DNA from: an uncultured Methanoregulaceae archaeon
GTDB taxonomy: Archaea > Halobacteriota > Methanomicrobia > Methanomicrobiales > Methanospirillaceae
NCBI GenBank assembly: GCA_963841015.1
Contig: CAWJAX010000005.1
Coordinates: forward strand, 96,001 to 160,000
Length of the DNA: 64,000 nt
Direction of reading: 5' to 3'
The notes below the pieces were generated by a model. The model was not told the origin of the DNA. It did no database searches and saw only the letters and a program-made list of their open reading frames with translations. Below, piece after piece: positions 2-58,454 of the stretch (positions are counted from its first letter, which is position 1; each line of letters begins with the position of its first letter). The translations under genes and the position numbers were made by a program.

Positions 2-1167
2 GTCTATGCGCACCATGATGCAGACGGCATAGCAGCCGGCTCGATCCTCTGCCATGCGATGGAGCGGGCAGGTATCCGGTTCCGCCTGAGGATCCGGCAT
101 GAAGTCAATCCTGCCGAGCTGAAGGGTGACGCTGGCCACCTTCTCTGCGATCTTGGGGCAGGAATATCTGATCTTCCCGCTGCAACAATGGTGGTCGATC
201 ACCATCTCCCGAAGTTTGAGGGAGCATTCCATGCCAACCCGAGGCTGGCCGGAATTGACGGGGACCGTGAACTGTCCGGAGCAGGTATGGCGTATCTCGT
301 TGCCCAGAAGATGGGAGACAACCGCGACCTGTCGGGGCTTGTAATACCCGGCATTATCGGGGACGGCCAGGAAATAACCGCCAAAAACCTCGAGATTTTC
401 AATGAAGGCATCACTGACGGCATCATCGTTCCTGACAGAGGACTCACCCTCCCGGGCAGGGACATGACCGAACGGTGGTATACAGCAACCAGCCCATACC
501 TAGATGGGATCAGCGGGGGGAACAGCTCATCGCCGATCTCATCGGTCAGGCACAAGGCCAGGCAAAAGGTGAGAATGCGAGCCGGCTCGACATCCTGCTA
601 TCACGGGTAGTACTGGAAGCAGCACCAAACGCGACACGGGCAAGTATCGATATGATCTATGGAGATACCTACCATCTCCAGCGTGAGGTAATTGAGGATG
701 CTCATGCACTCACTGCGGTGATTGATGCCTGTGGGAAAAGCGGTCGTGGCGATATCGGGGCGACTCTCTGCCTCCGATCTTCCTATTATCTCGACCAGGC
801 ATGGGAGATTGCCCGGCAGCATCGCATGAACGTAATCGATGCGATCAAACATTTAAGCCCCGCTGAAGGTCCGGTCGGTGTCTACGAAGTGCAGGACGTC
901 ACCCTGGCAAGCGATGTCGCAGATATCGTTGCCCGTGACCTTATCAACATGTGGCCGGTGCTCGTGTATGCGCATACCGGCGAGTCCTGCAAAATCTCAG
1001 CACGCTGTCCTGCAGGAATTGTTCGGGAACTCGGACCGCTGGTCAGTTCGCTCGCGGCTGCATGCGGGGGCACCGGCGGGGGGCATATCCGCAGGGCAGG
1101 GGCAACAATCCCCTGCGGGAAGATGGGTATGTTTACAAAAGGCTGGCAGGAGGAACTTGCCTCATGA
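2..1167 (+). CDS. DHH/DHHA1 phosphoesterase (RecJ-like), 5'-truncated by the window; one frameshift at G-run 515-520
   Basis: Motifs HHDADG, VVDHH, ELSGAG, GDGQ and C-terminal GGGH..AGA. ORFs 59..610 and 475..1167 join if one G is added. Sits in the usual DHH-pcc1-rps3ae context. Confidence 0.85.
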
Positions 1168-1409
1168 TGCAGATCAAAGGCGAGATCACGACAGTGCACA
1201 GGAATGCACGATGTGTTGCCTCATCATTAGCACCGGACAACCTCACCAGCATGACTACAATCGCTGAAGGTGATAAGGTGACAACAGTAATTACCGGCAC
1301 ACAGCTCAGGTCGGTCATCGCATCCGTAGATGACTATCTTATGAATCTGGCAATTGCGGAGGAGACCTGTTCGTCTTTTTCGCAACAATCCGCAGATACT
1401 CAAAGGTAA
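1164..1409 (+). CDS. pcc1: KEOPS complex subunit Pcc1
   Basis: ATGA overlap with the upstream gene; LAPDN...LRSVIASVDDYLMNL motif; immediately upstream of rps3ae. Confidence 0.85.
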   Translation: MMQIKGEITTVHRNARCVASSLAPDNLTSMTTIAEGDKVTTVITGTQLRSVIASVDDYLMNLAIAEETCSSFSQQSADTQR

Positions 1410-1497
1410 TAACGACCGTAAAACCCGGTCAGACACTCCGGGCAAGAATACGGTTGCAGGGAAAAAAGTACAGGGAGGAATTCCTCCAGGTGATACC

Positions 1498-2103
1498 ATG
1501 GCAAAGAAAAAACAGGTTGGAAGAAGAGTAGAAGGCTGGAAAGCCAAAAGCTGGTTCAAGGTGTACGTCCCCGACAACCTCGGTAAGGCGTACATCGGTG
1601 ACACCATTGCAAACGATGCTGAGAGCGTAGTTGGCAGGATCATGCAGGCAACGCTTGGTGAGATTACCAACGATTATGCAAAACAGCACATCAAGATGAG
1701 CTTTAAGATCGCAACCGTGACCGGTGATGCGGCATATACTGAATTTGTCGGCCACGAAGTTACCCGTGACTACCTCCGCTCGCTCGTCAAGCGCCGGAGC
1801 TCCCGTGTGGACTGCCAGGTTCCGCTCCTCACAAAAGACAGCAAGAAAGTGCGGCTGACCATCAGCTGCTACACGTTTGCCCGTGCAAACATTACGCAGG
1901 AGCATGCAATCAGAAAAGCCATCACCGACACGGTCGTTGCCCAGGCAGCAGCATGGGACCTGACCACACTCGTCAACGGGATTGCTTCTGGTGAGATTTC
2001 ACGGGATCTCTTCAAAGCGGTCAAGACCATTTACCCGACCCGCAGGGTTGAGATCATCAAATCCAAGGTCGAGCCGGTCGCAGCACGGGTCTCCACCGTA
2101 TAA
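1498..2103 (+). CDS. rps3ae: 30S ribosomal protein S3Ae
   Basis: WKAKSWFKV, DYLRSLVKRRSSRVD, IYPTRRVEIIKSKV; AGGTGA SD before ATG 1498; T-run after the stop. Confidence 0.97.
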   Translation: MAKKKQVGRRVEGWKAKSWFKVYVPDNLGKAYIGDTIANDAESVVGRIMQATLGEITNDYAKQHIKMSFKIATVTGDAAYTEFVGHEVTRDYLRSLVKRRSSRVDCQVPLLTKDSKKVRLTISCYTFARANITQEHAIRKAITDTVVAQAAAWDLTTLVNGIASGEISRDLFKAVKTIYPTRRVEIIKSKVEPVAARVSTV

Positions 2104-2219
2104 TACCAAAAGGATCCTTTTTTTTCATTGAGGTGACTTTCAATTACTGCTATCCCGCGATTCCCCTTGAAAGAGGAGACGGGCAATCCCATTACAGCGT
2201 GACGGATATAAAAACCGGG

Positions 2220-2292
2220 GGGATTAGCCGTGACTTTACGCTTCAGGCCCCGGATTCACCAGGGTTCTGCCGCGATACGCAGGAACACTCCC
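2220..2292 (-). ncRNA. Candidate 73-nt structured small RNA (three hairpins in a closing stem), family unknown
   Basis: Three hairpins plus a GGGA/UCCC closing stem; G-U pairs occur on the minus strand only; TTTAAG 25 nt upstream and T5 run downstream. Confidence 0.45.
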
Positions 2293-2403
2293 GTCGACAG
2301 GGTGTTTATACCTTAAAACAAGGGTATTTTCAGGATAATTCCCGGTTTTTATCACCCAACCAGAGAAACATAATTAGTCACTACATCCAACCATTCCATA
2401 CGA

Positions 2404-3639: not shown

Positions 3640-3658
3640 TGAACATTTCGGGTGACAG

Positions 3659-6534: not shown

Positions 6535-8623
6535 TCATCGTCTTCTATGCCCTTTGTGAGGAGGTACCTTCGGTTTTCCGCCGACTTTTTTAGGATCTGC
6601 CTTCTTCTCCTTATGAACGTCCTCGCTCTCAAGCTCGGCGATTACATCTACCGGATCATCCATGAATTTTGTCAGGCGGAGGATCTCAAGGAGCCGCTCC
6701 ATACCGATAAAGTGTTCCGCCATCACCTTTGCAAGCGGTGACATGACAAGCCGGGTCCCCCGCTTCTCGACAAGCCGGTGCGCAATCAGATCGGGCAGCA
6801 CCGGTTCCACCGTGCCGACCATCATACCGTTAATCCGGTTGAGATCTGCTTCCTCACCGTTACAGGCAACGGCATTTGCCACGTATTCTTCCGAACTCTT
6901 TTCGAAATCATGCTCGGGAGCTGACCTCTTCCATCTCTCCTTTGAGAAGGCGGATTGCAACCTCCTCTTCAGTAAACGGGTTCTCCCGGGAATAGGTACC
7001 TCCCGGCTCTGCAAGGAGAACTACCCGCCCGAGATCGTGGAAATCCGGTCTTCCCGCCCGGCCCGCCATCTGGTTGAATTCCTGTACCGAGAGCCAGTCC
7101 CTGCCCATGGCAAGCGCATCGAAAATCACCTGCGATGCCGGGAAGTCTACACCCGCACCGAGCGCTGCGGTCGTGACCACGGCCATGAGTTTCCCGCCCA
7201 GGAACTTTGTCTCAACATCCCTCCGCTCCTGGGACGTGAGACCGGCATGGTATGCAGCAGCTCTTATCCCCAGTGCATCGGCAATCGTATGGCAGCGGGC
7301 CCGGGCATTGGTAAAGATGATGGTCTGTCCCCGGAATCCCTTTGACGAAGTCCGCTTGTACTCCTCGGTCGTCATCTGCTTGATAGTCGGGATTTTCTGT
7401 TTGCGCTCGAGGAATAGAAGATACCGCTCCAGCCCCACCGGACGTTCAGCGTACCTCACAAGACTGCAGTTTAATTTTTTTGCCAGCGTCTTTGGGGAGC
7501 CGATGGTAGCCGAGAGATACAGGAACTGTGCCTGCGGGGCGAGATACTTCAATCGTGCGATCATGCCATCGAGGCGGTGCCCGCGGTCAGCATCCTCGAG
7601 CATCTGTACCTCATCAATAACTACGGTCGCAATGTTGGCCATCTTCTGCCCACAGCGGATCATGTTGTCCACCCCTTCATACGTCCCAACAATGATCGGG
7701 GACTGGGGGTTCCGGTCACCAATTTTCCGGGTCTCGGGAAGGTTGAGCCGGCTTACACCGGTGAGGAGCCCGGTCTTTGCAAGTTTCCCGTACCGCTCTG
7801 TGAACCGTTCATATTTCTGGTTTGCAAGTGCCACCAGCGGTACGAGGAACAGCATTCTTCCCCTCCCTTCAAGATAGTTCTTAATCCCGGCCATCTCACC
7901 GATGAAGGTCTTGCCGCTTGCTGTCGCGGCAACCACCAGCAGGTCCTTACCGTGCAGCAGACCTGCTTCCACTGCAAGCTGCTGGGCCGGCATGAGCTGG
8001 GAAACACCGCTTGCTTCAACAAACTGCCGCGGGAGGGGCAGTTCCCCGATTGCTGCAGTTGTCATAACCGGGTGCGGTTCGAGCCGGTCATAGAGCGCCG
8101 CTTTCATGGTAAGCTTGTCGGGTTGCAGCGTCGCTAATACACGGTCAAGATTGCGGAACGTGAGGAGCAGGTTCTCAAGGTGAGCATACCCCTCCAGACC
8201 CAGCCTGCCCATGTGGGAAACTTCACGGCGCAGCTCACGCTTCCCGCACTCAAGACAGATCTTCTCACCTTTTCCAAACGTGACAGAATTTTCCTCATTT
8301 AACTGGGTGAAACGCTCGTCCAGCAGGCACATGCGGCAGGCGTCAACAAAACCAGCTTTGATCTGAAAATCTCCAAGAAATGTTTCAAATTGCGGATCGG
8401 GTTTGACCAGACGGACATCTGCCTCACGGAGCCGGGCAATCAGTTCCTTTGAAGGTGTATGCCGGTACTCTTTCTTGGTGCCCCACCTGAGCCGGTACTT
8501 TGTCGGGCGCGGTCCCCGGGGGGTCTCCGTCAGCTCAACAAACCCGGCACCCAGCACATGCCGCCCATCATACAGGAGAAGTTTGTAACTGCCACCTTTC
8601 TGAGGCTGAACAAGGATCTTCAT
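6535..8623 (-). CDS. Archaeal Ski2-like DEAD/DEAH helicase; one frameshift near 6923
   Basis: ATASGKT, DEVQ, LSAT, YHAGL, QMAGRAGR. ORFs 6908..8623 and 6535..7014 join as EEVAPEHD. Confidence 0.9.
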
Positions 8624-20337: not shown

Positions 20338-20539
20338 TCAGTAGGGTAATAATACGAAGAGGCTCGTAGATGATGAATCCGATCAGTCCGACGAGTAAGA
20401 CACCCGCGGCAGCGACGGTCGCGATCTTGGTAAACTCTTCCCGGGTAGGGGTTCGTGCGAGTTTTAGCACCCGCCAGTATTTGCGGAATAACTCCTCGTG
20501 GAGTATATCGACTTTGAAGTCAGGTTTTGAAATTTCCAT
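20338..20539 (-). CDS. secE: Protein translocase SecE/Sec61-gamma; one extra base at ~20361 creates an apparent fusion to Spt5
   Basis: YWRVLKLARTPTREEF plus a TM helix. Removing one base gives YELFVLLPY* ending at 20338. Confidence 0.9.
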
Positions 20540-21637: not shown

Positions 21638-22951
21638 GAAAACTTCTCCAACCCCGGGATGTGGAGTTTAATTTCACTGCAGGAAGACACCATGTCAGGA
21701 GTAATCATCCTGCCATCGATCTCGACTGCCTGACCCGCCACCAGGTGTTTATAGGAAGGTCCTGCGGGAACCCCCAGGTTGCGCGCTTTATGGGGATCGA
21801 ACCTTGCCTTATGTATGATCAGGGTATCTTTCTCCGTTGCAGTGATCTCTTTGTTACGTATGATTTTTACGCACAATGTATTTAAATCATTTATTATTTG
21901 TGAAGAATGGCCTTCATACGTGATAAATTCCGGAAGCAGGCGGTTCTCGTGCGTTGAAAGGTGAACGACCGGAAGTTTACCAAGCGATTGTATCAGGGCA
22001 GTCCCATCTGATTTCACGGTTTCTCCAATCAGATCAGGATTTAACCTGACCATACACAGCGTCCCCTCCCCCGTCAGATTATGGACATAGCACCGTGCGC
22101 CTGAACGGACCTGCTCTGCCATATCACGGACAGCCTGGTAGGTATTCCAGGACAGGTGCCCCATTGCCATGATCTCACTTTCCGAAAGCCGGAGAATCGA
22201 GAGCCGGTTGAGCATCCCGGTCAGATTGCGGAGTTCTTCGCGATCCAGCGCTTTCCGGTCAATATATGCAGCTGACAGCCCCGCTTTTTGCCATCATCGC
22301 CAGCACCAGCTCCTCATCAAGCATCGGGATTTCCCGGGTATGGGCGATATGCCCGAACGCCCCTCTGGAGGTAAGGGCAATCTCAGTCTCCCGTGTTGCA
22401 TAGTGGGTACCACCAAATCCAATCAGAGGCACTGAATTCACCGCAGATGCAGACAAAACGCTTTCCGCGACAGCTCTGCCAGCAACAGGATCTGTCCATT
22501 CCTTCTCTGTACTCCCGATTTCGACAAAGAATGAGGGGTGTGAAAGACCGGTCGGTCCGTGGTGGGTGACTTCATAGGAGACCCGGTATCCTTCAGGACA
22601 GTGTTTCCTGAGTGCACGGAGCGTTGCCTGCATCATCGCGGGGGCTGCAGGCGCAAGAGTGCGGGGACTTCCCCCGACTTCTGCAGCACCAAAATTTCCG
22701 GTCACATGCACGGTGAGGACCGGAACGGGATTGGCACTGTAATGCCGTGAGAGAAAGATCAGGAGATCTGCATCAATCTGTATATCGATATGTTCTGCAT
22801 GGATCAGACGCTCAGCCACATGATAGAAATCATAGGTACGATCCTGATACTGGTCCCCCCCAGGAGCAATCGTACCAAGAAGGTGTTCGATGTGGTGCCG
22901 GATATTCACTCCCGCCTTGTCCTGCCGGGAGTTGATAAGAGCGACCTTCAT
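21634..22951 (-). CDS. dtdA: D-aminoacyl-tRNA deacylase (DTD2) with long C-terminal extension; frameshift ~22274
   Basis: [34 protein letters not shown]. Frames join as GAVAAYIDRK. Confidence 0.9.
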
Positions 22952-23041: not shown

Positions 23042-23219
23042 ATGGACTCAGATAAGATTGAACAGGCATTCAAGAGTGCAGGAATCGAAAAGAGCATCAC
23101 CTGCCCGGAGGCATTTTCCATCGCTGCAAAGTTCCGCATCCCCAAAAAGGAGATCAGTGAGTACCTGTAATGCGCACGGGATCAAGATCCGCGGCTGTCA
23201 GCTGGGCTGCTTCAAATGA
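23042..23219 (+). CDS. Small Cys-rich protein (…CQLGCF) coupled to moeA; extra base ~23165
   Basis: Corrected translation MDSDKIEQAFKSAGIEKSITCPEAFSIAAKFRIPKKEISEYCNAHGIKIRGCQLGCFK; ATGA overlap with moeA. Confidence 0.75.
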
Positions 23220-28665: not shown

Positions 28666-31600
28666 GTGAGAGAAGTCATCGCTAACTTCAATGCACAGTC
28701 GATAGAGTGTGCGGTGCAGGAACACTGGCGCACCAATGATACTTACGCAACCGTAAAACAGCACCGCGGTGGAGGGAAACCGTTCTTTTTTGTTGACGGT
28801 CCTCCCTATACCACAGGGACCATTCACCTGGGAACTGCGTGGAACAAGATACTAAAAGACTCTGTCCTGCGCTATCACCGCATGAATGACCGGCATGTAA
28901 TTGACCGGGCTGGCTACGATATGCACGGTCTTCCGATCGAAGTAAAAGTTGAGCAGGCACTCGGTTTTGAGTCAAAAAAGGATATCGAGAAGTATGGTAT
29001 CCGGAAATTCATCGATCAATGCCGGGAGTTTGCTACCAGGAACAAGCTCCTGATGGATGACCAGTTCGCCAGTCTTGGCGTCTGGCTGGACTTCCCGGGC
29101 GCTTACCAGACGGTTATGCCTGAATATATCGAGGCTGCATGGTGGACACTCGCACGGGCTGAGCAAAAGGGCATGCTCGAACGCGGGCACCGTGTTGTCA
29201 ACTGGTGTCCCCGGTGCGAGACAGCGATTGCAGATGCTGAAGTGGAATACAGGGACGTGAACGACCCCTCGGTTTTCGTCAAGTTCCCCCTCAAAGGTAA
29301 GAAAAACGAATACCTTGTTATCTGGACGACAACACCGTGGACGCTACCTGCCAACGTTGCCGTGGCCGTAGCTGGGGATTTCGAGTATGCAAAAGTGCTC
29401 GCCAAAAAAGACGACAGGGAAACACTCCTCTGGATCGCCGAACCATTGGTAAAAGCGGTTCTGAAGAAGGGACGCTGTAAAGACTTTTCCATTCTCGAGA
29501 CAAAGAAGGGTGCCGATCTCGCAGGATGGGAATATGAATCACCGCTCTGTTCCTGCGTGCCACTCCAGCGCGAGATCGATCACAAGGTTCTCACCGCAGA
29601 TTTCGTTGCGCTCGAGAATACCGGCATGGTTCATATCGCACCCGGCCATGGCTGGGACGACTTCGTGCTGGGGACAAAGGAGGGACTTGCCATTGTCTGC
29701 CCGGTGGATGGTGCCGGGAAATTCAAAGAAGAGGCCGGGATCTTTGCGGGTCAGTTCGTGCGGGATTCCAATGAGAATGTTCTGGTAGCGCTTGGCGATC
29801 ACCTGTTTGCACAAGAGACCGTCACCCACCGCTATGGTCACTGCTGGCGCTGCAAGACACCGATCATCTTCCGGGCGACATCACAATGGTTCTTGAAAAT
29901 CTCAGAGATGCGGGATCTGATGCTCAAAGAAGTGGCGAAAGTCACCTGGTACCGGATTGGGCGGGAAGCGCACGGTTCTACGACTGGATCAAGGAAGCCC
30001 GCGACTGGTGTATCTCGCGCCAGCGCTACTGGGGCATACCGATCCCCGTCTGGGTCTGCCCGAAATGCGATGCTTATCGGGTGATAGGTACTATCAGCGA
30101 ACTCGAAGAGCGCAGCGGCAGGCCACTCGCGGATCCACACCGCCCCTACGTTGATGATGTTACAATCCCCTGCAACTGCGGCGGTACGATGAAACGGGTC
30201 GAGGATATCTTCGATGTCTGGTTCGACTCGGCCGTTGCATCGTGGGCTACACTCGGATTCCCGGGTAAAACCACAGAGTTTGATATCCTCTGGCCGGCAG
30301 ATTTTATCACGGAAGGACAGGACCAGACCCGTGGATGGTTTTACTCCCAGCTCGGAGCGAGCATCATCGCATTCGGCAAAGCACCCTACCGGAGTGTCTG
30401 CATGCACGGCTTTGCTCTCGATGCCGAGGGGAAGAAGATGTCAAAAAGCCTTGGCAATGTCGTAACACCCGAAGAGGTCATCGCAAAAGTCGGTGTCGAT
30501 GTGCTCCGGCTGTACGTGCTTTCCTCATCAGCTCCCTGGGACGATCTCAAGTTTAACTGGGAGGGTGTTGGCACCACCAACCGTGCTATGAACATTCTCT
30601 GGAACGTGTACCGTTTCCCGCTCCCCTATATGATCCTGGATAAATTCGAACCTTCAAACAGGAATGGTGTCTGGGATGGGGCGTACATCCGGGCACACCT
30701 CAGTCATATGCCAGACGAGGACCGTTTCATCATATCCCGTATTAACTCTGTCGCTGCCACCGTTGATACAGCGTTGAAGGAATGCCAGCTCCACCGGGCA
30801 ACCCGGGAACTGGTGAACTTTATCCTGGAAGATCTCTCCCGCTGGTATGTTCAGCTTGTCCGCCCCCGCATGTGGTCTGAGGGGGAGTCGGTTGACAAAC
30901 TCCATGCCTATGAGACGATCTACTATGTTATGCGCCGGCTCACCGGGCTCCTTGCGCCGTTCTGCCCCCATATCACTGAGGAGATCTACCAGAACCTCAG
31001 GTGCGGGAATGATCCCGCAAGCATTCATCTGCAGGACTGGAATGCCGGGGATCCCGCACTTGTTGATGCATCTCTCGAACATGCGGTTTATATCGTCCGA
31101 TCCTTTGATGACGCATGTGCAAATGCACGTCAGGCAGGCAGGCGGAAACTCCGCTGGCCGGTATCTGAAGTAGTCGTGGTTACGGGTTCAGAAACGGTAA
31201 AAAACGCTATTGAACGGTTGAATGCAGTCTGTATGGACCGGGCTAATGCCCGTAAGGTGTCCGTTATCATGGAACGATGGGACCGGATCGGCTGGCAGGC
31301 AGAACCGGTCATGAAGGCGCTCGGAAAAGCATTTGGCAAGAACTCCTTCAAAGTGAAAGGACTAATCGAAAGTGCCGATGGCAACCATCTCAAAGCAGAG
31401 ATCGGGGTCGGGCGGACCGTAAAACTCAGTGCCAATGGCGAGGTCTTCGAAATCGGTGCGGAACACATGACCTTCACCGAAAAACTCCCATCGGAAGTGT
31501 TTTCCGCTCCCATGCAGGACGCAACGGTGTATGTGGATGTCAGGCTCGATGATGATCTCGAGAGGGAAGGGTATGAGCGTGAGGTTATCCGCCGGATACA

Positions 31601-38102: not shown

Positions 38103-38176
38103 GGGTCTGTCACTTAGTTCGGCATAGCGGCGGACTCTTAATCCGCAGGTCAAGGGTTCAAATCCCTTCAGGCCCG
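38103..38176 (+). tRNA. tRNA-Lys(CTT)
   Basis: GGGTCTG acceptor stem, GCGGA-CT-CTT-AA-TCCGC anticodon arm, GGTTCAAATCC T-arm. Positions 8-11 read TCAC instead of the expected TAGC. Confidence 0.92.
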
Positions 38177-39786: not shown

Positions 39787-40360
39787 ATGGAATTCAAAGG
39801 AAGCAGAACAGAAAAAAACGTCCTTGCCGCATTTGCCGGTGAGTCCCAGGCACGTACACGCTACAGTTTCTTTGCAAGCGCAGCACGTAAGGAGGGATTT
39901 GAGCAGGTTGGAGCAGTCTTCCAGCAGACATCAGAAGAGGAGAAAGAACATGCAAAGCTCGTTTTTTAAACAGCTCAAAGGAGGCGACGCAGAGATTACT
40001 GCATCATATCCCGCCGGGGTAATCGGCACTACCAGAGATAACCTCATGGCGGCAGCAAAGGGCGAGAAGATGGAATGGGGTACTCTCTATCCTGCATTTG
40101 CCAAGACGGCAGAGGATGAAGGGTTCAAAGATATTGCCAATCTCTTCAGACAGGTTGCCAGGGTGGAGGTATACCATGAACGACGGTATACTAAACTGCT
40201 TACAAATCTTGAAAAAGACGCGGTTTTCAAAAAAGATGCTCCTGCTCAATGGTACTGCCGGAACTGCGGTTATGTCCATGACGGCAAGGCAGCTCCAGTG
40301 AAATGCCCGGTCTGTGATCACCCGCAGAGTTATTTCGAGCTGTGGGTAGAAAATTACTAA
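39787..40360 (+). CDS. rbr: Rubrerythrin; extra base at ~39960
   Basis: [20 protein letters not shown]-terminal rubredoxin CRNCGY...CPVC. Confidence 0.95.
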
Positions 40361-41434: not shown

Positions 41435-42968
41435 ATGGACATTGCGTATAGCATAAACGAGATCGAAACACAGGTTGGAAAACTGTCCCCCATGCAGAAA
41501 TTCCTTCTTGGCACCGATGGCTCGGTCACGCAGATTCTGGAAGCGATTACCGGGAAACCGGTTGTAATCGAAACCCGGGTACAAAAAATCGTAAAAGCCG
41601 ATCCTGCAACGGCAGAATTTCTCGGGATCGGGCAGGGAGAACCTGTTAATTATCGTGTAGTTGAGATCAAGACTCCTGCAAGCGGTGAAGTGTTGATCTA
41701 TGCAATATCTCATACACCTCTTGCCCGCCTCTCTCCGGAATTCAAAGATGACCTGATGAAAGCAGATGTTCCTATCGGGAGGATCATTCAGAATCACCGG
41801 ATTGAGGCTCGACGCGAGATCCTCAATACCCGGGTTTCTCCGGCATCAGAAGAAACGGGCAGGATATTTTCCCTCTGCAGCAAAGAACCGCTGCTCAGCC
41901 GGGCAGTACCGTATTATTCACGAGGGTAAACCGCTCATCTTTATTGAAGAGCAGTTTCCGTACAACAAGTTCCTCGATGAACGGAGGGTAATTGTTCAGA
42001 CACCGTCACGCCTGCATCTTACGCTCATCGATATGCATGGGGGTTCCGGGCGGGTGGACGGGGGTGTAGGAATCACTCTCGATGAACCAGGAATCCTTAT
42101 CGAAGTGCACCAAAGCGCTGTACTTGAAGTAAAGGGTTGTGACAGCATGACGCGGGAGCGTATTATGGATACCGCCCGTCAGGTCCTGAAAGGTTTACAT
42201 GCCGGGAGTAACGTATCCATAATGGTTCGGAATTACTACCCGTCACATGTCGGTCTTGGCAGTGGATCACAGCTCATGCTAGCAATTGCCCGGGGAATCG
42301 CTGAGATTTATGGCAGGGTGATTCCAGTAAAAGAACTTGCCCTTCTGGTCGGCCGCGGGGGCACATCCGGGATTGGAACTGCCGCGTTTGAACTCGGGGG
42401 TTTTATTGTTGATGGAGGGCACGCATTCGGACAATACCGCGAAAAATCAGAATTCCGGCCGTCCCGAGCGTCAAGGGGTGTGAGGGCCCCCCCCATTGTT
42501 GCACGCCACGATTTTCCTTCAGACTGGCGAATTTTGCTTGCAATACCCGATCTCCCTGCTGGTGCGAGTGGCACAGGAGAAACAGATATCTTCAGGAACC
42601 ACTGCCCGGTTCCTGTTGAGGAGGTGCGGGAACTCTGCCATGAGATTCTGATGCGGATGCTTCCCGGTATTGTACAAAAAGATCTCGACCTGTTTGGTTC
42701 ATCGGTCAATGCCATCCAGGAACTTGGATTCAAAAAGGTCGAACTCAGCCTGCAGCCACCAGAAATCCCCCGACTAATTGAAGGGCTGCGTTCAGCGGGC
42801 GCAGCATGTGCCGGAATGAGCTCATTTGGCCCTGCTGTCTATGCTATCGGTGATACAGATATGAGGGGAATTGAGCAGGCAGCCAGAACTTTCATGAGCG
42901 AACACCGCGGTGGATCAACCTTGATCACTTCTGGCCGGAACAAAGGGGCACAGGTCAGGATTGCGTAA
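41435..42968 (+). CDS. DUF98 (chorismate lyase-like) domain fused to beta-RFAP synthase (GHMP fold); extra G at 41901-41903
   Basis: LLGTDGSVTQILE, PIGRI; second half TPSRLH, GRVDGGVG, HVGLGSG, RGGTSGIG, SSFGP. Frames join as LLSRQYRII. Confidence 0.88.
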
Positions 42969-43845: not shown

Positions 43846-44359
43846 TTAGAAATAGACCCGCTTAAAGATTAGGCCGTTGTTGCCGGTCTCATCGGATAGT
43901 ATCATATCTTCACCTTTCACCCCGTAGAAGCTGAGAGTTTTTCAGGAGGGCGAAGTATTCCGATTCCTGTTCCATTACTCCCGGGGGTTCAGTGCAGTAG
44001 GTCATCGGGCTTCGTATATGGCTTATCGAAATATTTTTTTTACCGGCCTGCCACAATCCTGTGTAAGGGTTACAGCTGTCGAATCCACTGAAACTCCCGT
44101 TATTATGGAACGTCAGCTGGATACCTGTTAACCGGACCGGGACTTTGGGAGCTCCATTGATAATCAATGCTTTTGCATACCATGGCCCAATCAGGTCTGA
44201 AGGGTCATTCCCTGCCGGGGAAATTACATCCAGACCTGTTTGCAGAGTTTCTGTTGAATCGGATGTCTTTCCTGGTCCGTAATCTGTACAACCGGCCGCA
44301 AAGATGAATCCCGCCATCACCAGGGTGATTACCATGCCTGAACATCTCATACCATTCAT
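43846..44359 (-). CDS. META (HslJ-like) domain lipoprotein; extra base ~43933
   Basis: AAGC lipobox, FSGFDSCNPY, MTYC...MEQE..YF. Corrected end NSSFYGVKGEDMILSDETGNNGLIFKRVYF*. Confidence 0.85.
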
Positions 44360-48521: not shown

Positions 48522-48546
48522 GATTGGAAAAAAATGAATGGATCTT

Positions 48547-49032: not shown

Positions 49033-49224
49033 AAAGAAAGCTTAATTTTTTTTATATTTCTGATTTGCGCTCTTCAATCGTGCTGAATGGTGTTTACCCG
49101 AAAAAAAAGGATTTTTCTGGCAGTGCGCAGGTTTCGGGCAGGAAAAATGCATGAAATGACAGAAAAGAACAGTTAAATTAAAAAGGACACCCGGATTAAC
49201 TTTACATATCAGGAGTAAAAGGGA

Positions 49225-49833: not shown

Positions 49834-49901
49834 TAATCTCTTTTTTTTATGAATTTTTCTGATGCACCTGATTACAACCAGAGTGCAGAAAGAGAGAGAT
49901 A

Positions 49902-50156
49902 TTAACGGAATTTTATTTTCATCCAGAGTAAGAACAAGACGAGAAATAAGGTAATGATATTTGCCGCAATGATAGGAAAGGAGTTGATCCAGATCCCATA
50001 TGCTGTCCACAAAAGCATCCCTGCTGCAAAGAGGAGGAGCATAGCAAGCGAGAAATCCTTGGTCTCTTTGAGTTTCCAGGTACGGATCACCTGCGGGACA
50101 AATGAGATAGTAGTGAGGGTTCCGGCAAGGTAGCCGACAAGAACAACGATATCCAT
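49902..50156 (-). CDS. SemiSWEET / PQ-loop transporter
   Basis: TTISFVPQV, TKDFS, LWTAYG, PIIAAN. Confidence 0.9.
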   Translation of the reverse strand: MDIVVLVGYLAGTLTTISFVPQVIRTWKLKETKDFSLAMLLLFAAGMLLWTAYGIWINSFPIIAANIITLFLVLFLLWMKIKFR

Positions 50157-50371
50157 AGAATTTCTCCACTATATTTATTTCTGTAATAATTTAAAACGGC
50201 GGGAGAATCGTTCGGACAGGAACCGGTTCATAGTCTGGATATTTTTTTTTACTTCGGGCCTGCGTATAGTATTTTGCATTGTAGTTCTCCAACTCAAACA
50301 AGGGGATATGAAGGGAAAAACTGAGCATGTGAGCAGGGTGAAAGTGAAAGAAAGACATAGAGAAAAGAAAA

Positions 50372-50444
50372 GGCCAGGGCCGAGATTCGAACCCGGGTCG
50401 GAGGATCCACAGTCCTCTAGGATAACCAACTACCCCACCCTGGC
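50372..50444 (-). tRNA. tRNA-His(GTG), no encoded G-1
   Basis: GCCAGGG acceptor stem, GAGGA-CT-GTG-GA-TCCTC anticodon arm, GGTTCGAATC, discriminator C; base -1 is T. Confidence 0.95.
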
Positions 50445-50704
50445 AAATGTCCCTTTTACATTTGCACCGGACTCTGATTAATGTATCCTTGCAGATCCAT
50501 CGCCGGAAGGGGATACCAGGGTTCATTTGTGAAGGAACAGCAACCAAGGATGATAAGTGATTATTAATAGGGTCAGGTGTCCATTACATATCAGGTGGCT
50601 CTGAACACAATTCCTGGAAATTGAGGCGCGGCACATCAGGTGATTGTGCACCGGGAATTGGGTATTTTTCTTCTGAATCAGAGCGGGAACGAGGGTCTTG
50701 GAAT

Positions 50705-52481
50705 ATGGCGGAGAATCCGAAGATCAGAACGCCTATTGTCTGCGTCATGGGGCATGTTGATCACGGGAAGACCTCTCTTTTGGACCGTATACGCGGATCC
50801 TCTGTTGTCAGTTCCGAAGTAGGTGCGATTACCCAGCACATCGGAGCGACCATCGTCCCGATAGAAGCGATCCGATCTATGAGTGGGACCATGGGGAAAT
50901 CCATCAATATTCCTGGATTGTTATTCATCGACACTCCGGGGCATCACGCATTCACCACCCTGCGGGCACGTGGCGGGGCATTCAGCTGACATGGCAATCC
51001 TTGTGGTCGATATCAACCAGGGGTTCCAGCCCCAGACAATAGAAGCACTTCAGATCCTGCGGAACTGCCGGACACCCTTTGTCGTTGCAGCCACCAAGAT
51101 TGACCGGATTCATGGCTGGCGGGTATTCGAGAATGAGTCGTTCCTTACATCATTTTCCAAGCAAAACGACCGGGTGAAGGGGGATGTGGAGAACAAGACC
51201 TACGAAATCGTTGGCAAGCTTGCTGAGCTTGAATTTTCTTCAGACCGGTTCGACAGGGTATCTGATTTCAAACGCAACCTGGCAATTGTGCCGGTCAGTG
51301 CACATACCGGAGAAGGCATTTCAGATCTCCTGCTGGTAATGATCGGGCTTGCCCAGCGGTATATGGGAGAGGAACTTGCACTTCTGGTCGAAGGTCCGGG
51401 CGCTGGTACCGTACTTGAAGTCAAGGAAGAAAGAGGACTTGGGACGACGCTTGACGTGATCCTGTATGACGGGACACTTGCGATTGGTGATGAAATTGCA
51501 GTTGCCACACAGGAGGCTGTTGTGGTGACGAAAGTGCGGTCGCTCTTAAAACCCCGCCCCATGAAAGAGATCCTCATTGAAGACAGGTTCGATCGGGTGA
51601 AGTCAGTAGCTGCAGCGGCCGGGATCAAGGTCACCGCTCCGAACCTCGAGAGCGTGATTGCAGGATCGCCGTTTTTTGTAATCCGTGGCAACAGGGAAGA
51701 AGTCGAAGCAAAGATAAAAAAAGAGATGACTGAGATTCACGTCAAACTCGCTGAAGAAGGAATCGTAATTAAGGCAGATACAATCGGGGCTCTGGAAGCA
51801 CTCTGTAAGGAACTTGAGGGAAAAGAAATCGGAGTAATGCGGGCAGAAGTCGGACCGGTAAGCCGGCACGACCTGATTGATACGGAAACCATCAAAAACC
51901 CGGTATTTCGCGTACTTCTCTCGTTTAATACCCAGATCCTTCCTGACGCTTCTGATATGATCAAAAACCCCCTGTATACGCAGGTAAAAGTGTTTGAGGG
52001 AAGAGTAATCTACCAGCTGATCGACCAGTATCTTGCGTGGCGGGACGAGCAGAAACGGCTCCTGGAAAAGCAGCGTTTTGAGCACATTGTGATGCCGGCA
52101 AAAATCCGGCTCCTTCCTGATTGTGTATTCCGTCAAAGCAACCCTGCGGTTGTCGGAGTGCGGGTGCTTGGCGGGAAGCTGCGCAACGATGTTAACCTTA
52201 TAAAAACTGACGGGAAGAAAGTAGGGCATCTCAAATCCATGCAGCTCCGCCAGGAATCCATTCGCGAAGCAGATGCCGGACTTGAAGTTGCGATCTCGAT
52301 TGAGGGTGTTACCGTAGGGCGGCAGCTGAACGTGGGGGATGACCTGTTTGTGGATATTCCGGAGCGTCACGTGAAAGTTCTCGAGCGCGAGATGCTCAAA
52401 ACCCTGAACGTGAGCACACAGGAAATTCTTGGTGAGTTCACGACGATGAAGCGGAAAAGTGAGCCCTTCTGGGGGAAATAG
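50705..52481 (+). CDS. infB: Translation initiation factor aIF5B (IF-2); extra C at 50983
   Basis: [24 protein letters not shown]. Frames join as RGGALAD. Confidence 0.96.
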
Positions 52482-52637
52482 CCATAGAGGTACTTACCAT
52501 TGACGCGAGGATTTAATAGCGTATCAGTATAATAAAATGGGTACTTCTCATGTGTAGGCATAATTGCCGGCAGCCCAGAGACGTGAAAAAATCCAATACC
52601 TGGGTTTTTTGATGAAAATCAATACGGAGCAAAAAAG

Positions 52638-53063
52638 ATGGTTGAGTTAAAAATCGTCGTATCAGACCCAAAAACCGGTCGCGCTTATAATGTGGACGCA
52701 AGTGGCGGCGCCGCGGGTGCAATCGTGGGCAAACGTATCGGAGAGGAAATCGATGCAGGTGCAATGGGACTTGCAGGCTATAAAATCCTGATCACCGGTG
52801 CATCCGATCGGACCGGAATACCCGCAAAAAAGAGCCTGCCGGGCGCAGGGAGAAAAAAGCTGCTCATGACAGCCGGTGTCGGGTTCCATCCGACTATGGA
52901 GGGAGAGCGACGGAGAAAGACTATCAGGTCAAACGAGATCACCGCTGACTTCGTACAGATTAATGCCCGCGTAACTACCTATGGAGACAAAACCCTGGAA
53001 GAACTCTTTCCTAAAGTCGAGGGAGAGAAAGCAGAGAAAAAGGTAAAAGCCGGCAGAAGATAA
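52638..53063 (+). CDS. rps6e: 30S ribosomal protein S6e
   Basis: VVSDPKTG, ITGASDRTG, GERRRKTIR, QIN. Confidence 0.96.
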   Translation: MVELKIVVSDPKTGRAYNVDASGGAAGAIVGKRIGEEIDAGAMGLAGYKILITGASDRTGIPAKKSLPGAGRKKLLMTAGVGFHPTMEGERRRKTIRSNEITADFVQINARVTTYGDKTLEELFPKVEGEKAEKKVKAGRR

Positions 53064-53134
53064 TATATCTTTTTTTTGATTTTTTGTTTTATTTTGCCGT
53101 TTTGAGCAAATAAAAAAAAGAGAGGAACAGATCC

Positions 53135-53587
53135 TTAGATCTTATAGTTAATACTGGCAATGCCATACGGTGTTGAATTCTTCGCTGATACTAACGATTT
53201 CCCGTTTTTAAAGAGCTCTACGGTGATTTCGTGCTTTGTTGATCCATCATCTTTTTTGAAGGTCGCCGAAACGTTTCCCGTTGCATTGGCGATTTCATAG
53301 AGTTTGACACCGGAATTTGGAACGGGTTTTATCATCACGTTGTTGACGCCATAGGTGCCAGAAAATCCACCAAGATAACTGACTTTGACATACACTCCGG
53401 TAACAGGGATAGTAACCTGTGTTGTTGGCTTAACGGTCAGAGTACCTGATACCTGCGTCGGTTGGGTACTGGTTCCTGTGGGCTTCGTGGTAACCTGTGG
53501 TGTAGATTGCTGACTTGTACAACCAGTTATTAGTACAATTCCTACAAGGGACAGAATAACTAAGACCACTACCCATTTTCTAATCAT
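53135..53587 (-). CDS. Hypothetical lipoprotein
   Basis: ITGC lipobox, T/P/Q linker, beta-rich C-terminal domain. Confidence 0.75.
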   Translation of the reverse strand: MIRKWVVVLVILSLVGIVLITGCTSQQSTPQVTTKPTGTSTQPTQVSGTLTVKPTTQVTIPVTGVYVKVSYLGGFSGTYGVNNVMIKPVPNSGVKLYEIANATGNVSATFKKDDGSTKHEITVELFKNGKSLVSAKNSTPYGIASINYKI

Positions 53588-53781
53588 AAAGATCCCTCTT
53601 TGAAAATAGGTTCAGCAATATGCAAGAGTTGTCCCACAAATCCCTTCTGTTTCTCGTCATAAATATACCTCTTCATACTTGTCTGTTGATATATAAGGAA
53701 TAAATGGGCGAAATACTTTGTTGTTACAAGAGCGGTTTTTTGCATCCTGTTATAAGTAAAAAAAACAGACCCCGTAAAAAA

Positions 53782-54243
53782 TTACACTTTTTTCATGCTC
53801 GCTATGAGCGCTTCTCTTAAATCCTTGAAAGGGACATTGTATTTTTTTGCGAGCAGAACGAGTGCTGCCGCCGGGAGAAGATTGCCATCAAACCGCTCTT
53901 TGATGATCTGGTTCATTTCGGAAACTACTTCGGTTTCCTTCATCCCCTGTGCATTTGCAATCCTTCCAATCAGTTCCTGCGATGGGTCATTACGTTCAAA
54001 AATTGAAGAAGTGGGTTTGAATCCAACGGGAATGATAATATCCCTGATATCGAAACGGGGAGAGAAAACGCCATTCGCCTGACCGATAAGTCCGTCTTCC
54101 TCGGCCCGCTGCAATAGCTGATTCGCCTGCTCAGTGCTCATCCACTTACGATCAAGCGCGTAATAATATACCAGCTCGTTCTTTCTCATCCCGGTTTTCC
54201 GGGTATGTTTGAAAGGTGCTGCAACGGTGATCCGAATCGTCAA
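53782..54243 (-). CDS. DUF2240-family archaeal protein
   Basis: VAAPF, LDRKWMS.EQA, IPVGFKP, AALVLLA. Confidence 0.8.
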   Translation of the reverse strand: MTIRITVAAPFKHTRKTGMRKNELVYYYALDRKWMSTEQANQLLQRAEEDGLIGQANGVFSPRFDIRDIIIPVGFKPTSSIFERNDPSQELIGRIANAQGMKETEVVSEMNQIIKERFDGNLLPAAALVLLAKKYNVPFKDLREALIASMKKV

Positions 54244-54662
54244 TTTGAGGCACCCAGAAGGATATTTTTCAGGTCCAGCGCGTCCAGTCCCTCGCCACGC
54301 CCTTCCTTTGCAATATCAATGTCGGTCCTTGATACCTGGTCGGTCAGTCTGATATAGAAGACGTCATTTGCAATCGGAACCTTTCCACCACCGCGAAGTG
54401 CAAGCGCGAGCAGTGATACCTGCATATCAACAGCTTCGGTGATCACTCCCGGGCGCAAGACATCCGGTGTAATGTCCCCAAATGTTGCCCGGTCGACTGC
54501 AATCTTCACCTTTGTCTTTACCTTCACCAGTTCCTTTCCAGTCGTCTTGGTGGACTCTGCATTATCAAGACCTGCAATATGTTTCAGCGTATCGTTAAAC
54601 GGCATTCCCATTGCAAATGAGAGGTCCACCCGCTGAGGAAATCGATAATAGATCCTTCGCAT
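54240..54662 (-). CDS. Hypothetical protein
   Basis: 140-aa ORF overlapping the DUF2240 start by 4 nt. Confidence 0.6.
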   Translation of the reverse strand: MRRIYYRFPQRVDLSFAMGMPFNDTLKHIAGLDNAESTKTTGKELVKVKTKVKIAVDRATFGDITPDVLRPGVITEAVDMQVSLLALALRGGGKVPIANDVFYIRLTDQVSRTDIDIAKEGRGEGLDALDLKNILLGASN

Positions 54663-54833
54663 GATTAGACTATGTGGAGGTCTTAGAGAAAAAAGATTGC
54701 TGAATACCAGTTTTAATCGTTCTTCAAATGACCGTGAAATGCTTTTTTTAATACTGGTGCATTCTCAAACGGGAAAATGCAGATAAAACCTAAAAAATGA
54801 TTAAAAAAAGTCTGTTCCTTGAGGTTTTTTTGA

Positions 54834-55211
54834 TTATTCGAGTAACACCGCATTGATCACGCCGTCCTGACCCGGACGGCTCATGATACGGGCATTTCCG
54901 ATCTCTGTCTTGATGATGGCACCTTTCGTCAGAAGATTTCGCCGTACATAGTTCGGGTTCGCTCCATTCTCAACGACACTCGCGATCGCAACTTTTTTGC
55001 ACTCACCGTTTTTGAGATTGGTCACGTTTGCAAAGCTTGCACGAAGCGCACGGACTTTCTGGTTTGCGCCGGTAGTACGGATATTCTTTCTCCGGTCTTC
55101 ACCGATATGGGTATCTGCGGGTGCGAGCCCGATCTCCGTTCTCCGCTTCATCTGTGCCGGGCGGCGTCTGCCCCCAGTCACTTTTCGTACTGATTCTCCT
55201 TGCCACTGCAT
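54834..55211 (-). CDS. rps8e: 30S ribosomal protein S8e
   Basis: MQWQG.S.RK.TGGR, RRNLLTKGAII, SRPGQDGVINAVL. Confidence 0.97.
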   Translation of the reverse strand: MQWQGESVRKVTGGRRRPAQMKRRTEIGLAPADTHIGEDRRKNIRTTGANQKVRALRASFANVTNLKNGECKKVAIASVVENGANPNYVRRNLLTKGAIIKTEIGNARIMSRPGQDGVINAVLLE

Positions 55212-55425
55212 GGTATCACTCTCAATAATATTTCTGCGGAAACCTGTCCCGAAGATGGTGCTCTATATATTCCCTTCAGAATTATTTATAGTATTTCCCG
55301 ATTGATTCGTGTTCCCTTCCATACCCATACGGATGAGCGAGAGGGATTTGTTTAAACCTCCTGTAATCCTTGGCAAAAAACAAGGGATCTTTTCTCTGTA
55401 CTTGCATCCGGTTTTTTTGTTTTTT

Positions 55426-56073
55426 TTACGAGAGAATTGAATCAAGAAGTGCCATAATACCATCACCGGTCTTCAGGTTGGTGAAAAAGACGGGCATCCG
55501 TGGATTGTACCGATGGATGTCTGATTCCATCCGGTCGAGATTTGCTCCAACAAGGGGAGCGAGATCAACCTTGTTGATCACTCCAATCGTGCAGTCACGG
55601 AACATCATCGGATGCTTGTTTACCACGTCATCACCTTCTGTTGTGCTCACAATTACAATTCTCTTTTCTGCCCCAAGACGGAAATCTGTTGGGCAGACCA
55701 TATTGCCCACGTTCTCAATAAAAAGAATATCAATAGCATTGAGTGGCAGGTGTTCGATTGCGTGTTCTACAAGATGGGCATCAAGATGACATTCCTTACC
55801 GGTATTTGCATTGAATGCAGGGATACCCAATGCCACGATCCGTTTGAAATCATCGTCCCCAAACACATCTCCCGCAATCGCGCCCGCACGCAATCCCTTT
55901 TTTTTAAGCAGGGGAACAAGACGCTCAATGAGTGCAGTTTTTCCCGAACCGATGGCTCCAAGCAGGTCAAATGCCCGGACACCATGGTCTTTCAGGAATT
56001 TTGCATTATTGTCTGCAAGGGTGTTGTTGACGTCGTAAATATCTTTCTCAATCCTGACGTCGATGTGATGCAT
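55426..56073 (-). CDS. hypB: Hydrogenase nickel incorporation GTPase HypB
   Basis: GAIGSGKT, TGKECHLDAH, ENVGNMVCP, NKVD. Confidence 0.96.
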   Translation of the reverse strand: MHHIDVRIEKDIYDVNNTLADNNAKFLKDHGVRAFDLLGAIGSGKTALIERLVPLLKKKGLRAGAIAGDVFGDDDFKRIVALGIPAFNANTGKECHLDAHLVEHAIEHLPLNAIDILFIENVGNMVCPTDFRLGAEKRIVIVSTTEGDDVVNKHPMMFRDCTIGVINKVDLAPLVGANLDRMESDIHRYNPRMPVFFTNLKTGDGIMALLDSILS

Positions 56074-56127
56074 AGTACAAGGTACGAGCGTACACTGTTT
56101 ATACCTTGACCCACAAATTCTCCTGTA

Positions 56128-56403
56128 ATGGCGCAAGGCGAGTGCATATTATATCCCTGCTACTTCAACGCGGCTTATTCACGTCGTCAGGGGCGAAGGG
56201 TGGCACGGAGTCGCGGAGCGAAGGCACCGGTAATCAGTGATCTCGAACGCGCATTGAAACACGCCAATGTTACGTTCAGGATTGAGGAACACCACCACCC
56301 TGCTCACTGGATGCGGCGGGAGGGTCGTATTGTTGCAGAATGGCACGAAGGCAAAGAGGCGCTCATCAAAAAAGTTGCCCAGAAACTCGAGGTGAAACGG
56401 TGA
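56128..56403 (+). CDS. srp19: Signal recognition particle protein SRP19
   Basis: ILYPCYFN...SRRQGRRV, HPAHW...GRI. Confidence 0.93.
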   Translation: MAQGECILYPCYFNAAYSRRQGRRVARSRGAKAPVISDLERALKHANVTFRIEEHHHPAHWMRREGRIVAEWHEGKEALIKKVAQKLEVKR

Positions 56404-57053
56404 GCGGTTCATATGACCTGCATACCCATTCTATCCTTTCTGATGGCGAGATGCTCCCCATCGAATTAATCCGACGGATGGCAGTGCTTGGGTATACGAC
56501 GGTTGCTATCACTGATCATGTTGACGCATCCAATACCACCTCTGTCATTGAATCTCTCGTTCAGATACGGGATTCTGCAAATATTTATGGAGTAAGATTG
56601 CTCTGTGGTGTTGAGATTACTCATGTTCCCCCATCGCAGATAGCAGATCTGGCAAAAACAGCAAAAACTGCCGGGGCAGATATCGTTATCGTTCATGGAG
56701 AGACACCGGTTGAGCCGGTGGCTGGCGGGACAAATCATGCAGCGTGCGGGTGCAAATACGTGAATGTGCTTGCGCACCCGGGACTCATCACTCTTGAAGA
56801 TGCACTTCATGCCGCAAAGAACGGCATTGCACTTGAGATTACGTCGCGTGGCGGGCATAACCGGACAAATGGTCATGTTGCTCAGGTCGCACGTGAAGCA
56901 GCATGTCAGCTTGTTGTAGACTCTGATGCGCATGCGCCCCATGACCTGCTGGATGAGCGCGCGAAATTTGTGGTCGCAAAAGGAGCCGGACTTACTGATG
57001 CTGAGTGCAGACAGGTTATATCTTTAAATATCGACCAGTTTCTGGGTTCCTGA
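56400..57053 (+). CDS. PHP-domain protein (histidinol-phosphatase-like)
   Basis: DLHTHS..SDG, ITDH, GVEITH, VHGET, LAHPG, DSDAH. Confidence 0.9.
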   Translation: MSGSYDLHTHSILSDGEMLPIELIRRMAVLGYTTVAITDHVDASNTTSVIESLVQIRDSANIYGVRLLCGVEITHVPPSQIADLAKTAKTAGADIVIVHGETPVEPVAGGTNHAACGCKYVNVLAHPGLITLEDALHAAKNGIALEITSRGGHNRTNGHVAQVAREAACQLVVDSDAHAPHDLLDERAKFVVAKGAGLTDAECRQVISLNIDQFLGS

Positions 57054-57154
57054 AATTTCTATTTATACCTTTTCTCAATATTTAAATACTAGTGCGTCTT
57101 TCATATATAGATTACTAAATTATTTCATTACCATCGTATCCTGGTGGGTGTTGT

Positions 57155-57378
57155 GTGAAAGTTGTTGGTCGAGCGATGAGCACCATTGGCAATCGGATGC
57201 TCATTATTCAGTGCGATGCCGCACAGCTTCCCCATTGTACAGCGAAGTAACTGATCGTCGGATGAAACCTGTGGGAAAGATACTGGACCTCTTTGGTAAT
57301 ATCAAAAACCCCTATGCAGCTGTACTCTGCCGGGAAAAATGCACTGTCCAGCCGAATGAAAAGCTCTTCGCAAAATGA
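57155..57378 (+). CDS. gar1: H/ACA RNP protein Gar1; one C missing at 57230-57233
   Basis: Corrected MKVVGRAM...LPPLYSEVTD...VGKILDLFGNIKNPY; upstream of tfb. Confidence 0.85.
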
Positions 57379-57449
57379 TGACACCCCTTGGAGTACCAGG
57401 GTCCTCATGCAGAGAAAAATTAAAAAAATGGAAAAATTGGTGATTATTG

Positions 57450-58454
57450 ATGCAGGAAGTTGAAAAATTAAAAGTCCTTCAGAGTGAACGGGAAGCTCTC
57501 AAATTACGCACGAAAGGAAAAGAGACCGAGAAGAAGGCTGAAAACCATACTGAAACCGTCTGCCCGGAGTGCGGGGGCAGACAGACTTGTCCATGACTAT
57601 GAACGGGCAGAACTGGTCTGCCAGGGTTGCGGTCTCGTCATTGATGGCGATTTCATTGACCGGGGTCCTGAGTGGCGTGCATTTGACCACGACCAGCGTA
57701 TGAAGCGCTCACGTGTCGGAGCTCCCATGACATTTACGATTCATGACAAGGGTCTTTCAACGATGATTGACTGGCGCAACCGTGATTCGTATGGCAGGGC
57801 AATCTCATCGAAAAACCGTGCACAGCTCTACCGGCTTCGCAAATGGCAGCGCCGTATTCGTGTCAGTAATGCAACCGAACGCAATCTTGCATTCGCCCTT
57901 TCAGAACTTGATCGTATGGCCTCTGCACTCGGTCTTCCGAGAAACGTCCGGGAGACTGCAGCAGTTGTTTACCGGGATGCGGTGGACAAGAACCTGATCC
58001 GGGGGCGGAGCATTGAAGGTGTTGCCGCAGCAGCACTCTATGCAGCCTGCCGCCAGTGCAATGTACCCGTACCCTTGATGAGATTGCAGAAGTATCCCGT
58101 GTATCCAGAAAAGAGATCGGCAGGACTTACCGGTTCATCTCCAGGGAACTCGGGCTCAAACTTCTCCCGACATCCCCCATTGATTATGTACCACGCTTCT
58201 GCTCCGGGCTTTCACTCAAGGGTGAAGTGCAAAGCCGGGCTGTTGAAATCCTGCGTCAGGCAGGAGAACGTGAATTAACAAGTGGCAGGGGTCCGACCGG
58301 TGTAGCCGCAGCCGCAATTTACATATCCTCTATCCTGGGCGGTGAACGACGCACCCAGCGCGAAGTGGCAGAAGTGGCTGGTGTAACAGAAGTCACTATC
58401 AGGAACAGATATAAGGAACTGGCAGAAAAGTTAGATATCGAGATTATTCTCTGA
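57450..58454 (+). CDS. tfb: Transcription initiation factor B; frameshifts at ~57585 and ~58067
   Basis: CPECGG...ELVCQGCG zinc ribbon, [35 protein letters not shown]. Confidence 0.96.

Follow-up and report, generated by a model that had tools for sequence, protein, structure and literature searches.

Frameshift errors in the assembly of an uncultured archaeon cluster at AGCT and GTAC, probable sites of N4-cytosine methylation

Introduction

A 64,000-nucleotide stretch of the genome of an uncultured Methanoregulaceae archaeon (genome G000, contig C5, positions 96001-160000; hereafter the window) encodes archaeal proteins and four tRNAs, and several of these genes are interrupted by single-base insertions or losses. 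Are the genes decayed or has the assembly misread them, and if it has, what determines the sites at which it fails? An original prediction, made from the letters of the window, listed 14 lesions, tied every one of them to the palindromes AGCT and GTAC, held the genes to be intact and proposed that the organism methylates both motifs. We show here that the indels are assembly errors and that they cluster at AGCT and GTAC across the genome. The frameshifts are probably long-read consensus errors linked to N4-methylcytosine (m4C) at these two motifs, methylation being a cause that we infer from patterns in the sequence. The genome comprises 2.28 Mb (G+C 0.47-0.50), and its division into five contigs suggests a long-read assembly.

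Results

The lesions in the window are errors

Public reads provided sequences of close relatives with which the window could be compared. Eighteen runs from 11 studies contain at least part of window positions 38085-48084, and 15 of them contain half or more of its 31-mers. Contigs from four runs of four studies, representing strains about 99% identical and derived from metagenomes other than the source sample, were compared over 38085-58084, and the comparison was read for 12 of the 52 indel rows listed. The second comparison was with G008, the closest relative used, which belongs to the same genus (about 1.41 Mb taken; 84% nucleotide identity over ileS). The lesions are given below in window coordinates, with the frame change (d) against G008 proteins where one was placed.

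515..527, no strand given: DHH gene; loss of a base in the G run 515-520 or close to it, 4 nt ahead of AGCT 524-527; d = -1 at 517-521.
6919..6924, minus strand: helicase; extra base, AGCTGA on the plus strand (TCAGCT on the gene strand); d = +1 at 6923-6924.
20359..20364, minus strand: secE; extra base, AGGCT read as AGCT with an insertion, an assignment we infer, as G008 lacks AGCT here; d = +1 at 20359-20360.
22270..22274, minus strand: dtdA; extra base, TCAGCT on the gene strand; d = +1 at 22272-22273.
23161..23170, plus strand: Cys-rich protein; frame change at GTACC, placed approximately; a single G008 open reading frame (ORF) matches by tblastn in two pieces, 22962-23249 in frame 3 and 23167-23289 in frame 1.
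29949..29953, plus strand: ileS; base lost after GGTAC; one-base DNA gap against three relatives; d = -1 at 29952-29953.
38110..38114, plus strand: tRNA-Lys(CTT), called by ARAGORN; TCACT against TAGCT in G008; tRNA positions 8-12, with G10 replaced.
38272, no strand given, just downstream of tRNA-Lys and absent from the original list: extra T within AGCT (AGTCT); contigs of three of the four runs lack the T (AGCT).
39956..39960, plus strand: rubrerythrin; extra C directly after AGCT (AGCTCG for AGCTG); 39960 absent in all four runs.
41901..41910, plus strand: DUF98-RFAP synthase; one G too many in the run 41901-41903, which lies within TCAGCCGGG, 4 nt before GTAC 41907-41910; 41901 absent in all four runs; d = +1 at 41903.
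43929..43933, minus strand: META-domain gene; probable frameshift near the 3' end at AGCTGA; checked in part.
50983..50987, plus strand: infB; extra C, TCAGCT for TAGCT; 50983 absent in all three runs covering infB.
54742, no strand given, absent from the original list: extra C ahead of a T7 run, neither AGCT nor GTAC being close by; absent in all four runs.
57225..57233, plus strand: gar1; C lost from a C run two bases past AGCT (after AGCTT); a C is inserted behind 57229 in all four runs.
57583..57587, plus strand: tfb, first lesion; extra A within AGCT (AGACT); 57585 absent in all four runs.
58063..58072, plus strand: tfb, second lesion; C lost from a C run that begins at the C of GTAC; a C is inserted behind 58065 in all four runs, in three of them in part of the depth.

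At all six listed sites displayed (39960, 41901, 50983, 57229, 57585 and 58065), the near-identical strains carry the unbroken form, and the indels thus do not persist in the contigs of these four runs from other samples. Together with the two sites not on the list, eight positions differ from the assembly by one base in the contigs of three or four of the four runs. Restoration of the reading frame in dtdA would give GTA GCT, encoding the same Val-Ala as GTG GCT in G008. The tRNA-Lys matches that of G008 at 86 of 90 positions, and the two bases noted above are the sole differences inside the tRNA. In the META-domain gene, the Pfam match reaches no further than profile position 86 of 109, at residue 143 of 149 and six residues ahead of the stop, and a different frame carries on for 31 residues. 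Apart from this gene, all the listed lesions are confirmed as errors (13 of 14).

The alternative that the frameshifts are real, representing pseudogenes or strain-specific mutations, is supported by the assembled sequence itself and by nothing more, and we regard it as very unlikely. A real pseudogene or a programmed frameshift would have the shifted sequence in the organism's DNA; instead, contigs from four studies are unbroken at each of the six sites. Essential genes and the stem of a tRNA are affected, the genes with lesions including ileS, infB, secE and tfb. In the contigs of the near-identical strains the genes are intact, as had been claimed.

The sequence also bears out the location of the motifs. 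For 11 of the 14 lesions the nearest intact AGCT or GTAC is no more than 4 nt away, and the remaining three are accounted for by motifs that the error itself destroyed. Two of these three were verified from outside sequence: the AGACT of tfb is AGCT in the contigs, and the tRNA-Lys sequence is TAGCT in G008. The association of every listed lesion with AGCT or GTAC thus stands in the window (14/14) when the destroyed motifs are counted; it does not extend to the whole genome, where 44% of events are so placed on a strict count and 56% if AGNCT is included. The list of lesions was also incomplete, since at least two errors of the window (38272 and 54742) had been overlooked. The second of these has no motif nearby and, consequently, not every error is motif-linked.

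AGCT and GTAC stand out genome-wide

To place frameshifts across the genome, ORFs of at least 100 amino acids (aa) from G008 were compared with G000 by tblastn, and neighboring pieces on the same strand in different frames were scored as an event, positioned at the frame-switch point scoring best by BLOSUM62. Pieces were allowed to overlap by up to 25 residues; this limit was kept even though the lesion in the Cys-rich protein was missed because its two pieces overlap by 27. Parsing of gaps at the DNA level against G008 was abandoned, as the median identity of 78% is too low for gap placement, and protein-level frame changes were used in its place. With a finished assembly and frameshift positions as the material, the detectable errors are indels alone. 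The detector covered 777,341 bases of G000, of which 43,288 are in the window. It returned 103 events (70 of +1, 21 of -1, six of +2 and six of -2), and the exclusion of three with an interval longer than 7 nt left 100 usable events, 70 of them insertions. This amounts to about one event per 7.5 kb of covered coding sequence, a rate that, combined with the motif specificity described below, is unlike gene decay.

An event was considered near a motif, following the original prediction, if the motif overlapped the event interval extended by 4 nt on either side, and 20,000 positions drawn from the covered sequence itself served as controls for the expected values. The genome-wide test against all four-mers for which that prediction had called placed AGCT first of 136 (26/100 events against 3.23 expected, p = 1.2e-16) and GTAC third (20/100 against 4.14, p = 4.7e-9). 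TCAG/CTGA ranked second (36/100 against 13.0, p = 4.5e-9) because it is largely contained in the error product TCAGCT. Either AGCT or GTAC was found at 44 of 100 events and at 7.28% of the controls (p = 6.8e-24); the earlier estimate that about 10% of random positions would lie this close was thus conservative, the figure for coding positions being 7.3%. Removal of the six window events left the result unchanged in kind (39/94, p = 3e-20), and the AGCT/GTAC share was 18/33 for events whose protein identity was 80% or more. The distance to the nearest motif peaked at 0-2 nt (40/100 events), with a flat distribution in the controls.

Among the 16 four-base palindromes, AGCT and GTAC were enriched, CCGG weakly so (23 against 12.5, 1.8-fold), and the other 13 were flat. 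These include GATC, reported to carry N6-methyladenine (m6A) in the order, at which nine events were observed and 9.4 expected. CTNAG, tried as a third motif, drew 13 events against 2.3 overall, but 4/56 against 1.2 once the AGCT/GTAC events were set aside; its signal came mostly from overlap with TCAGCT and the candidate was dropped. The clustering is therefore real and covers about half of the frameshifts (about 56% tied to AGCT or GTAC), not all of them.

The errors take recurring forms

The words around the events are few and recur. TCAGCT was found at 13 events against 0.74 expected, and at infB the contigs resolve it as T[C]AGCT. AGNCT was found at 13 against 2.9, mostly as AGACT or AGTCT (11 against 1.45), which the contigs (at 57585 and 38272) show to be AGCT with a base inserted between G and C. 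GTAC events read GTACC in 19 of 20 cases, and AGTACC occurred at 11 events against 0.79 expected; in alignments with G008 the insertions look like a base added at the C or behind it, and the deletions like a C run that has been shortened. A hierarchical count of the 100 events assigns 26 to AGCT, a further 18 to GTAC, 12 to AGNCT, five to TCAGC, three to AGCCGG and four to GTNAC, the last at background level.

Candidate methyltransferases lie outside the window

If the two motifs are methylated, the genome should encode the enzymes, which had been predicted to lie outside the window. Candidates were indeed found, and none is in the window. The genome carries four intact genes of the PF01555 (N6_N4_Mtase) family, the remnant of a fifth and one Dam-family gene; PF00145 (C5 methylase) and PF02384 (N6_Mtase) had no match in the genome. 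On contig C5, MT1 lies at 461386-462438 (minus strand), MT2 at 436479-437387 (plus strand), MT5 at 56875-58302 (minus strand) and MT3 at 494700-495431 (plus strand). MT1 and MT2 match PF01555 over the full profile. The catalytic motif is SPPY in MT1 and MT2, SPPF in MT5 and DPPF in MT3, and SPPY presumably marks N4-cytosine enzymes. Of the 12 genus genomes searched, 10-11 hold orthologues of MT1, MT2 and MT5 at 69-81% identity, and six hold orthologues of MT3 at 78-89%. MT5 is present in two further families of the order as well, at 60-63%. Matches in PDB, NCBIfam and the protein atlas place the methyltransferases at the level of family and give no motif specificity.

No nuclease family was found among the neighbors of MT2 and MT5. 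In the locus C5:460480-462438, MT1 (351 aa) adjoins a 186-aa ORF with a match to RE_BsaWI (E = 1.4e-8), which sits between MT1 and a 75-residue methyltransferase remnant. Given this BsaWI-family endonuclease-like neighbor, MT1 may not be an orphan enzyme. It also has a C-terminal extension (residues 265-351) that is absent from its orthologues of about 260 aa. Motif avoidance, considered as a sign of restriction, was set aside, AGCT and GTAC being unremarkable genome-wide (observed/expected, O/E, 0.84 and 0.92). The same counts showed that CTAG is strongly under-represented (424 sites genome-wide, 11 of them in the window; O/E 0.35) and that GGCC has an O/E of 0.67.

Methylation as the probable cause, and its alternatives

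According to a REBASE-based survey of archaea (PMC10609329), orphan m4C methyltransferases for AGCT (HG16), GTAC (HG18) and CTNAG (HG20) are present in six of six Methanoregulaceae/Methanospirillaceae genomes, AGCT/GTAC m4C methylation is persistent in these families, and GATC m6A occurs in 15 of 19 Methanomicrobiales. The survey thereby bears out the background given with the original prediction, which described both motifs as known m4C sites in Methanomicrobia. The genome is matched to the surveyed clade by its enzyme set and by that earlier assignment. The four-mers ranked first and third of 136 in our test are the clade's two four-base m4C motifs, which makes sequence context alone hard to credit. 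The explanation that we consider probable is as follows. The source reads would most probably be native-DNA nanopore reads. Conserved methyltransferases of the beta class, with genes in other parts of the genome, would place N4-methylcytosine at AGCT and GTAC. The modified C would shift the signal, and at that base or beside it the basecaller would add or omit a letter. For AGCT the recurring products are T[C]AGCT, AG[A/T/G]CT and AGCT[C]G; for GTAC they are GTAC[C] and a C run that has been shortened. Since such a miscall would be systematic, the consensus would retain it, at about 1-2% of AGCT sites and less than 1% of GTAC sites, and those miscalls that fall in coding sequence would split genes.

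Several observations weigh against this explanation. The hierarchical count leaves eight events with a homopolymer of at least 5 alone and 24 without any tested feature. The clade's third reported m4C motif, CTNAG, has little signal independent of the other two (4/56 against 1.2). Few motif sites are affected in the covered sequence (26-38 of 1,898 for AGCT and 20 of 2,399 for GTAC); methylation alone thus does not decide which sites fail. The methylation errors described for R10.4.1 reads (PMC11610603) are mostly C-to-T/G-to-A substitutions, whereas those detectable here are indels, mainly insertions. Finally, in two other genomes of the genus, G005 and G007, orthologues of these enzymes are present and frameshifts are numerous, yet the motif signal is weak.

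These two genomes (G005, C2:1-400000; G007, C5:1-240000 and C1) were run as controls. They are assembled in few contigs at 60-63% completeness and have about one event per 2 kb of covered coding sequence, mostly single-base insertions off homopolymers and mostly off the motifs. With the same pipeline and reference, 9/62 events in G005 were near AGCT or GTAC against 7.3% (p = 0.034); in G007, AGCT and GTAC were each near 3/41, but AGACT/AGTCT was found at five events against 0.40 expected. This weak signal indicates that the pipeline does not create the enrichment seen in G000. The two genomes were also considered as replicates and rejected as such: their errors are mostly diffuse and insertion-rich, and while they serve as a pipeline control they do not separate methylation from sequence-only error.

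Could a basecaller or polisher err at these words regardless of methylation? That about 1-2% of the motif sites are affected would fit such an error, and local sequence clearly matters, as the contexts TCAGCT (13 against 0.74) and AGTACC (11 against 0.79) recur. Yet unmodified AGCT and GTAC are present in every training genome, and G005, of the same genus and similar composition, shows no such enrichment beyond its weak signal. The top two motifs among 136 four-mers are exactly the two 4-bp m4C motifs that the survey (PMC10609329) gives for the clade. We therefore think a purely sequence-driven error unlikely.

Alternatively, methylation could cause the errors on another platform or at another step, for instance through polymerase pausing at m4C in single-molecule real-time reads, which would produce extra pulses. 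The dominance of insertions (70/100), the resemblance of GTAC[C] to a duplicated modified base and the diffuse, insertion-rich errors of G005 and G007 would agree with this. By contrast, a duplicated modified base would yield neither AG[A/T]CT nor T[C]AGCT, and single-molecule real-time consensus removes minority insertions, so that we judge this origin quite improbable. Miscalling of m4C in native-DNA nanopore reads remains the explanation that we favor.

A possible third hotspot at AGCCGG

AGCCGG was found at 11 events against 1.35 expected and, with the AGCT/GTAC events removed, at 8/56 against 0.8 (p = 9.5e-7). Six of the AGCCGG events read TCAGCCGG, an 8-mer that occurs 61 times in the covered sequence. 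Examples are the following.

41894-41903: in the window.
330963, 351929 and 361733: on contig C5.
94269 and 784325: on contig C3.

The motif (TC)AGCCGG lies outside the motif set published for the clade (PMC10609329), and this possible hotspot is new. The recognition site of BsaWI has, we assume, a CCGG core. The hotspot may be linked to the BsaWI-family endonuclease-like ORF beside MT1, which we offer as a lead. It is conceivable, though we would not count on it, that frameshift positions alone recover the methylome of this uncultured archaeon and point to (TC)AGCCGG as a third modified site. If that is true, the error maps of public long-read genomes could be mined for the methylation motifs of organisms that will never be brought into culture.

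A possible repeated or mobile element in the window

The contig comparison also drew attention to window positions 43535-43807. Within the bin 43421-44087 contig depth is 20 to 30 times higher, two runs have contigs that leave out 222-258 bases at the same place, and many loose ends begin at 43585-43794. The pattern points to a short element, repeated or mobile, at this position.

Discussion

The frameshifts described here are an assembly artefact of a known kind, useful for curation and not new in principle. Extrapolated to 2.28 Mb, the 103 events in 777 kb correspond to about 300 falsely split genes, provided that the measured rate holds, and split genes such as ileS, infB, secE, tfb and the tRNA gene should not be taken as pseudogenes. 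Motif and context predict the errors, so that polishing with short reads or with attention to motifs would mend most of them. The pattern is also an indirect pointer that the m4C marks at AGCT and GTAC of cultured Methanoregulaceae/Methanospirillaceae are present in an uncultured freshwater relative.

That methylation leads to systematic nanopore errors, and that such errors reveal motifs, is already known from print. Our literature search, which covered papers and not their supplements, found the general phenomenon and no paper on m4C-linked indels at AGCT/GTAC in archaeal assemblies. The closest precedent is that of the Dcm motif (CCWGG), which according to Wick et al. 2019 (PMC6591954) holds about 70% of nanopore consensus errors. 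There, and presumably here as well, systematic consensus errors of native-DNA long reads concentrate in the organism's methylation motif and account for much of the total, and the cause given is a basecaller model not trained on that modification. The Dcm case differs in that it concerns 5-methylcytosine (m5C) in a 5-bp motif of Enterobacteriaceae, with raw data and a reference at hand, whereas the present one concerns presumed m4C in two 4-bp palindromes of an uncultured archaeon, seen as indels, with a cause deduced from their distribution.

Hammerhead (PMC11610603), which reports that modifications cause assembly errors and that modification can be read from read errors, shares with the original prediction the idea of errors as a read-out of the methylome. 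Its material is strand-specific mismatches in raw R10.4.1 reads, mainly C-to-T/G-to-A, in contrast to the finished assembly and frameshift positions used here. The nearest biological counterpart is the HG16/HG18/HG20 set of PMC10609329. The enzymes of this genome are likened to the HG16 and HG18 orphans by family and motif, not by REBASE sequence, and MT1 is perhaps not an orphan. The two 4-bp motifs are nevertheless the same, and the genome's N6_N4 enzymes with SPPY or SPPF, together with its Dam-family enzyme, match the prediction from the survey of this m4C set plus GATC m6A.

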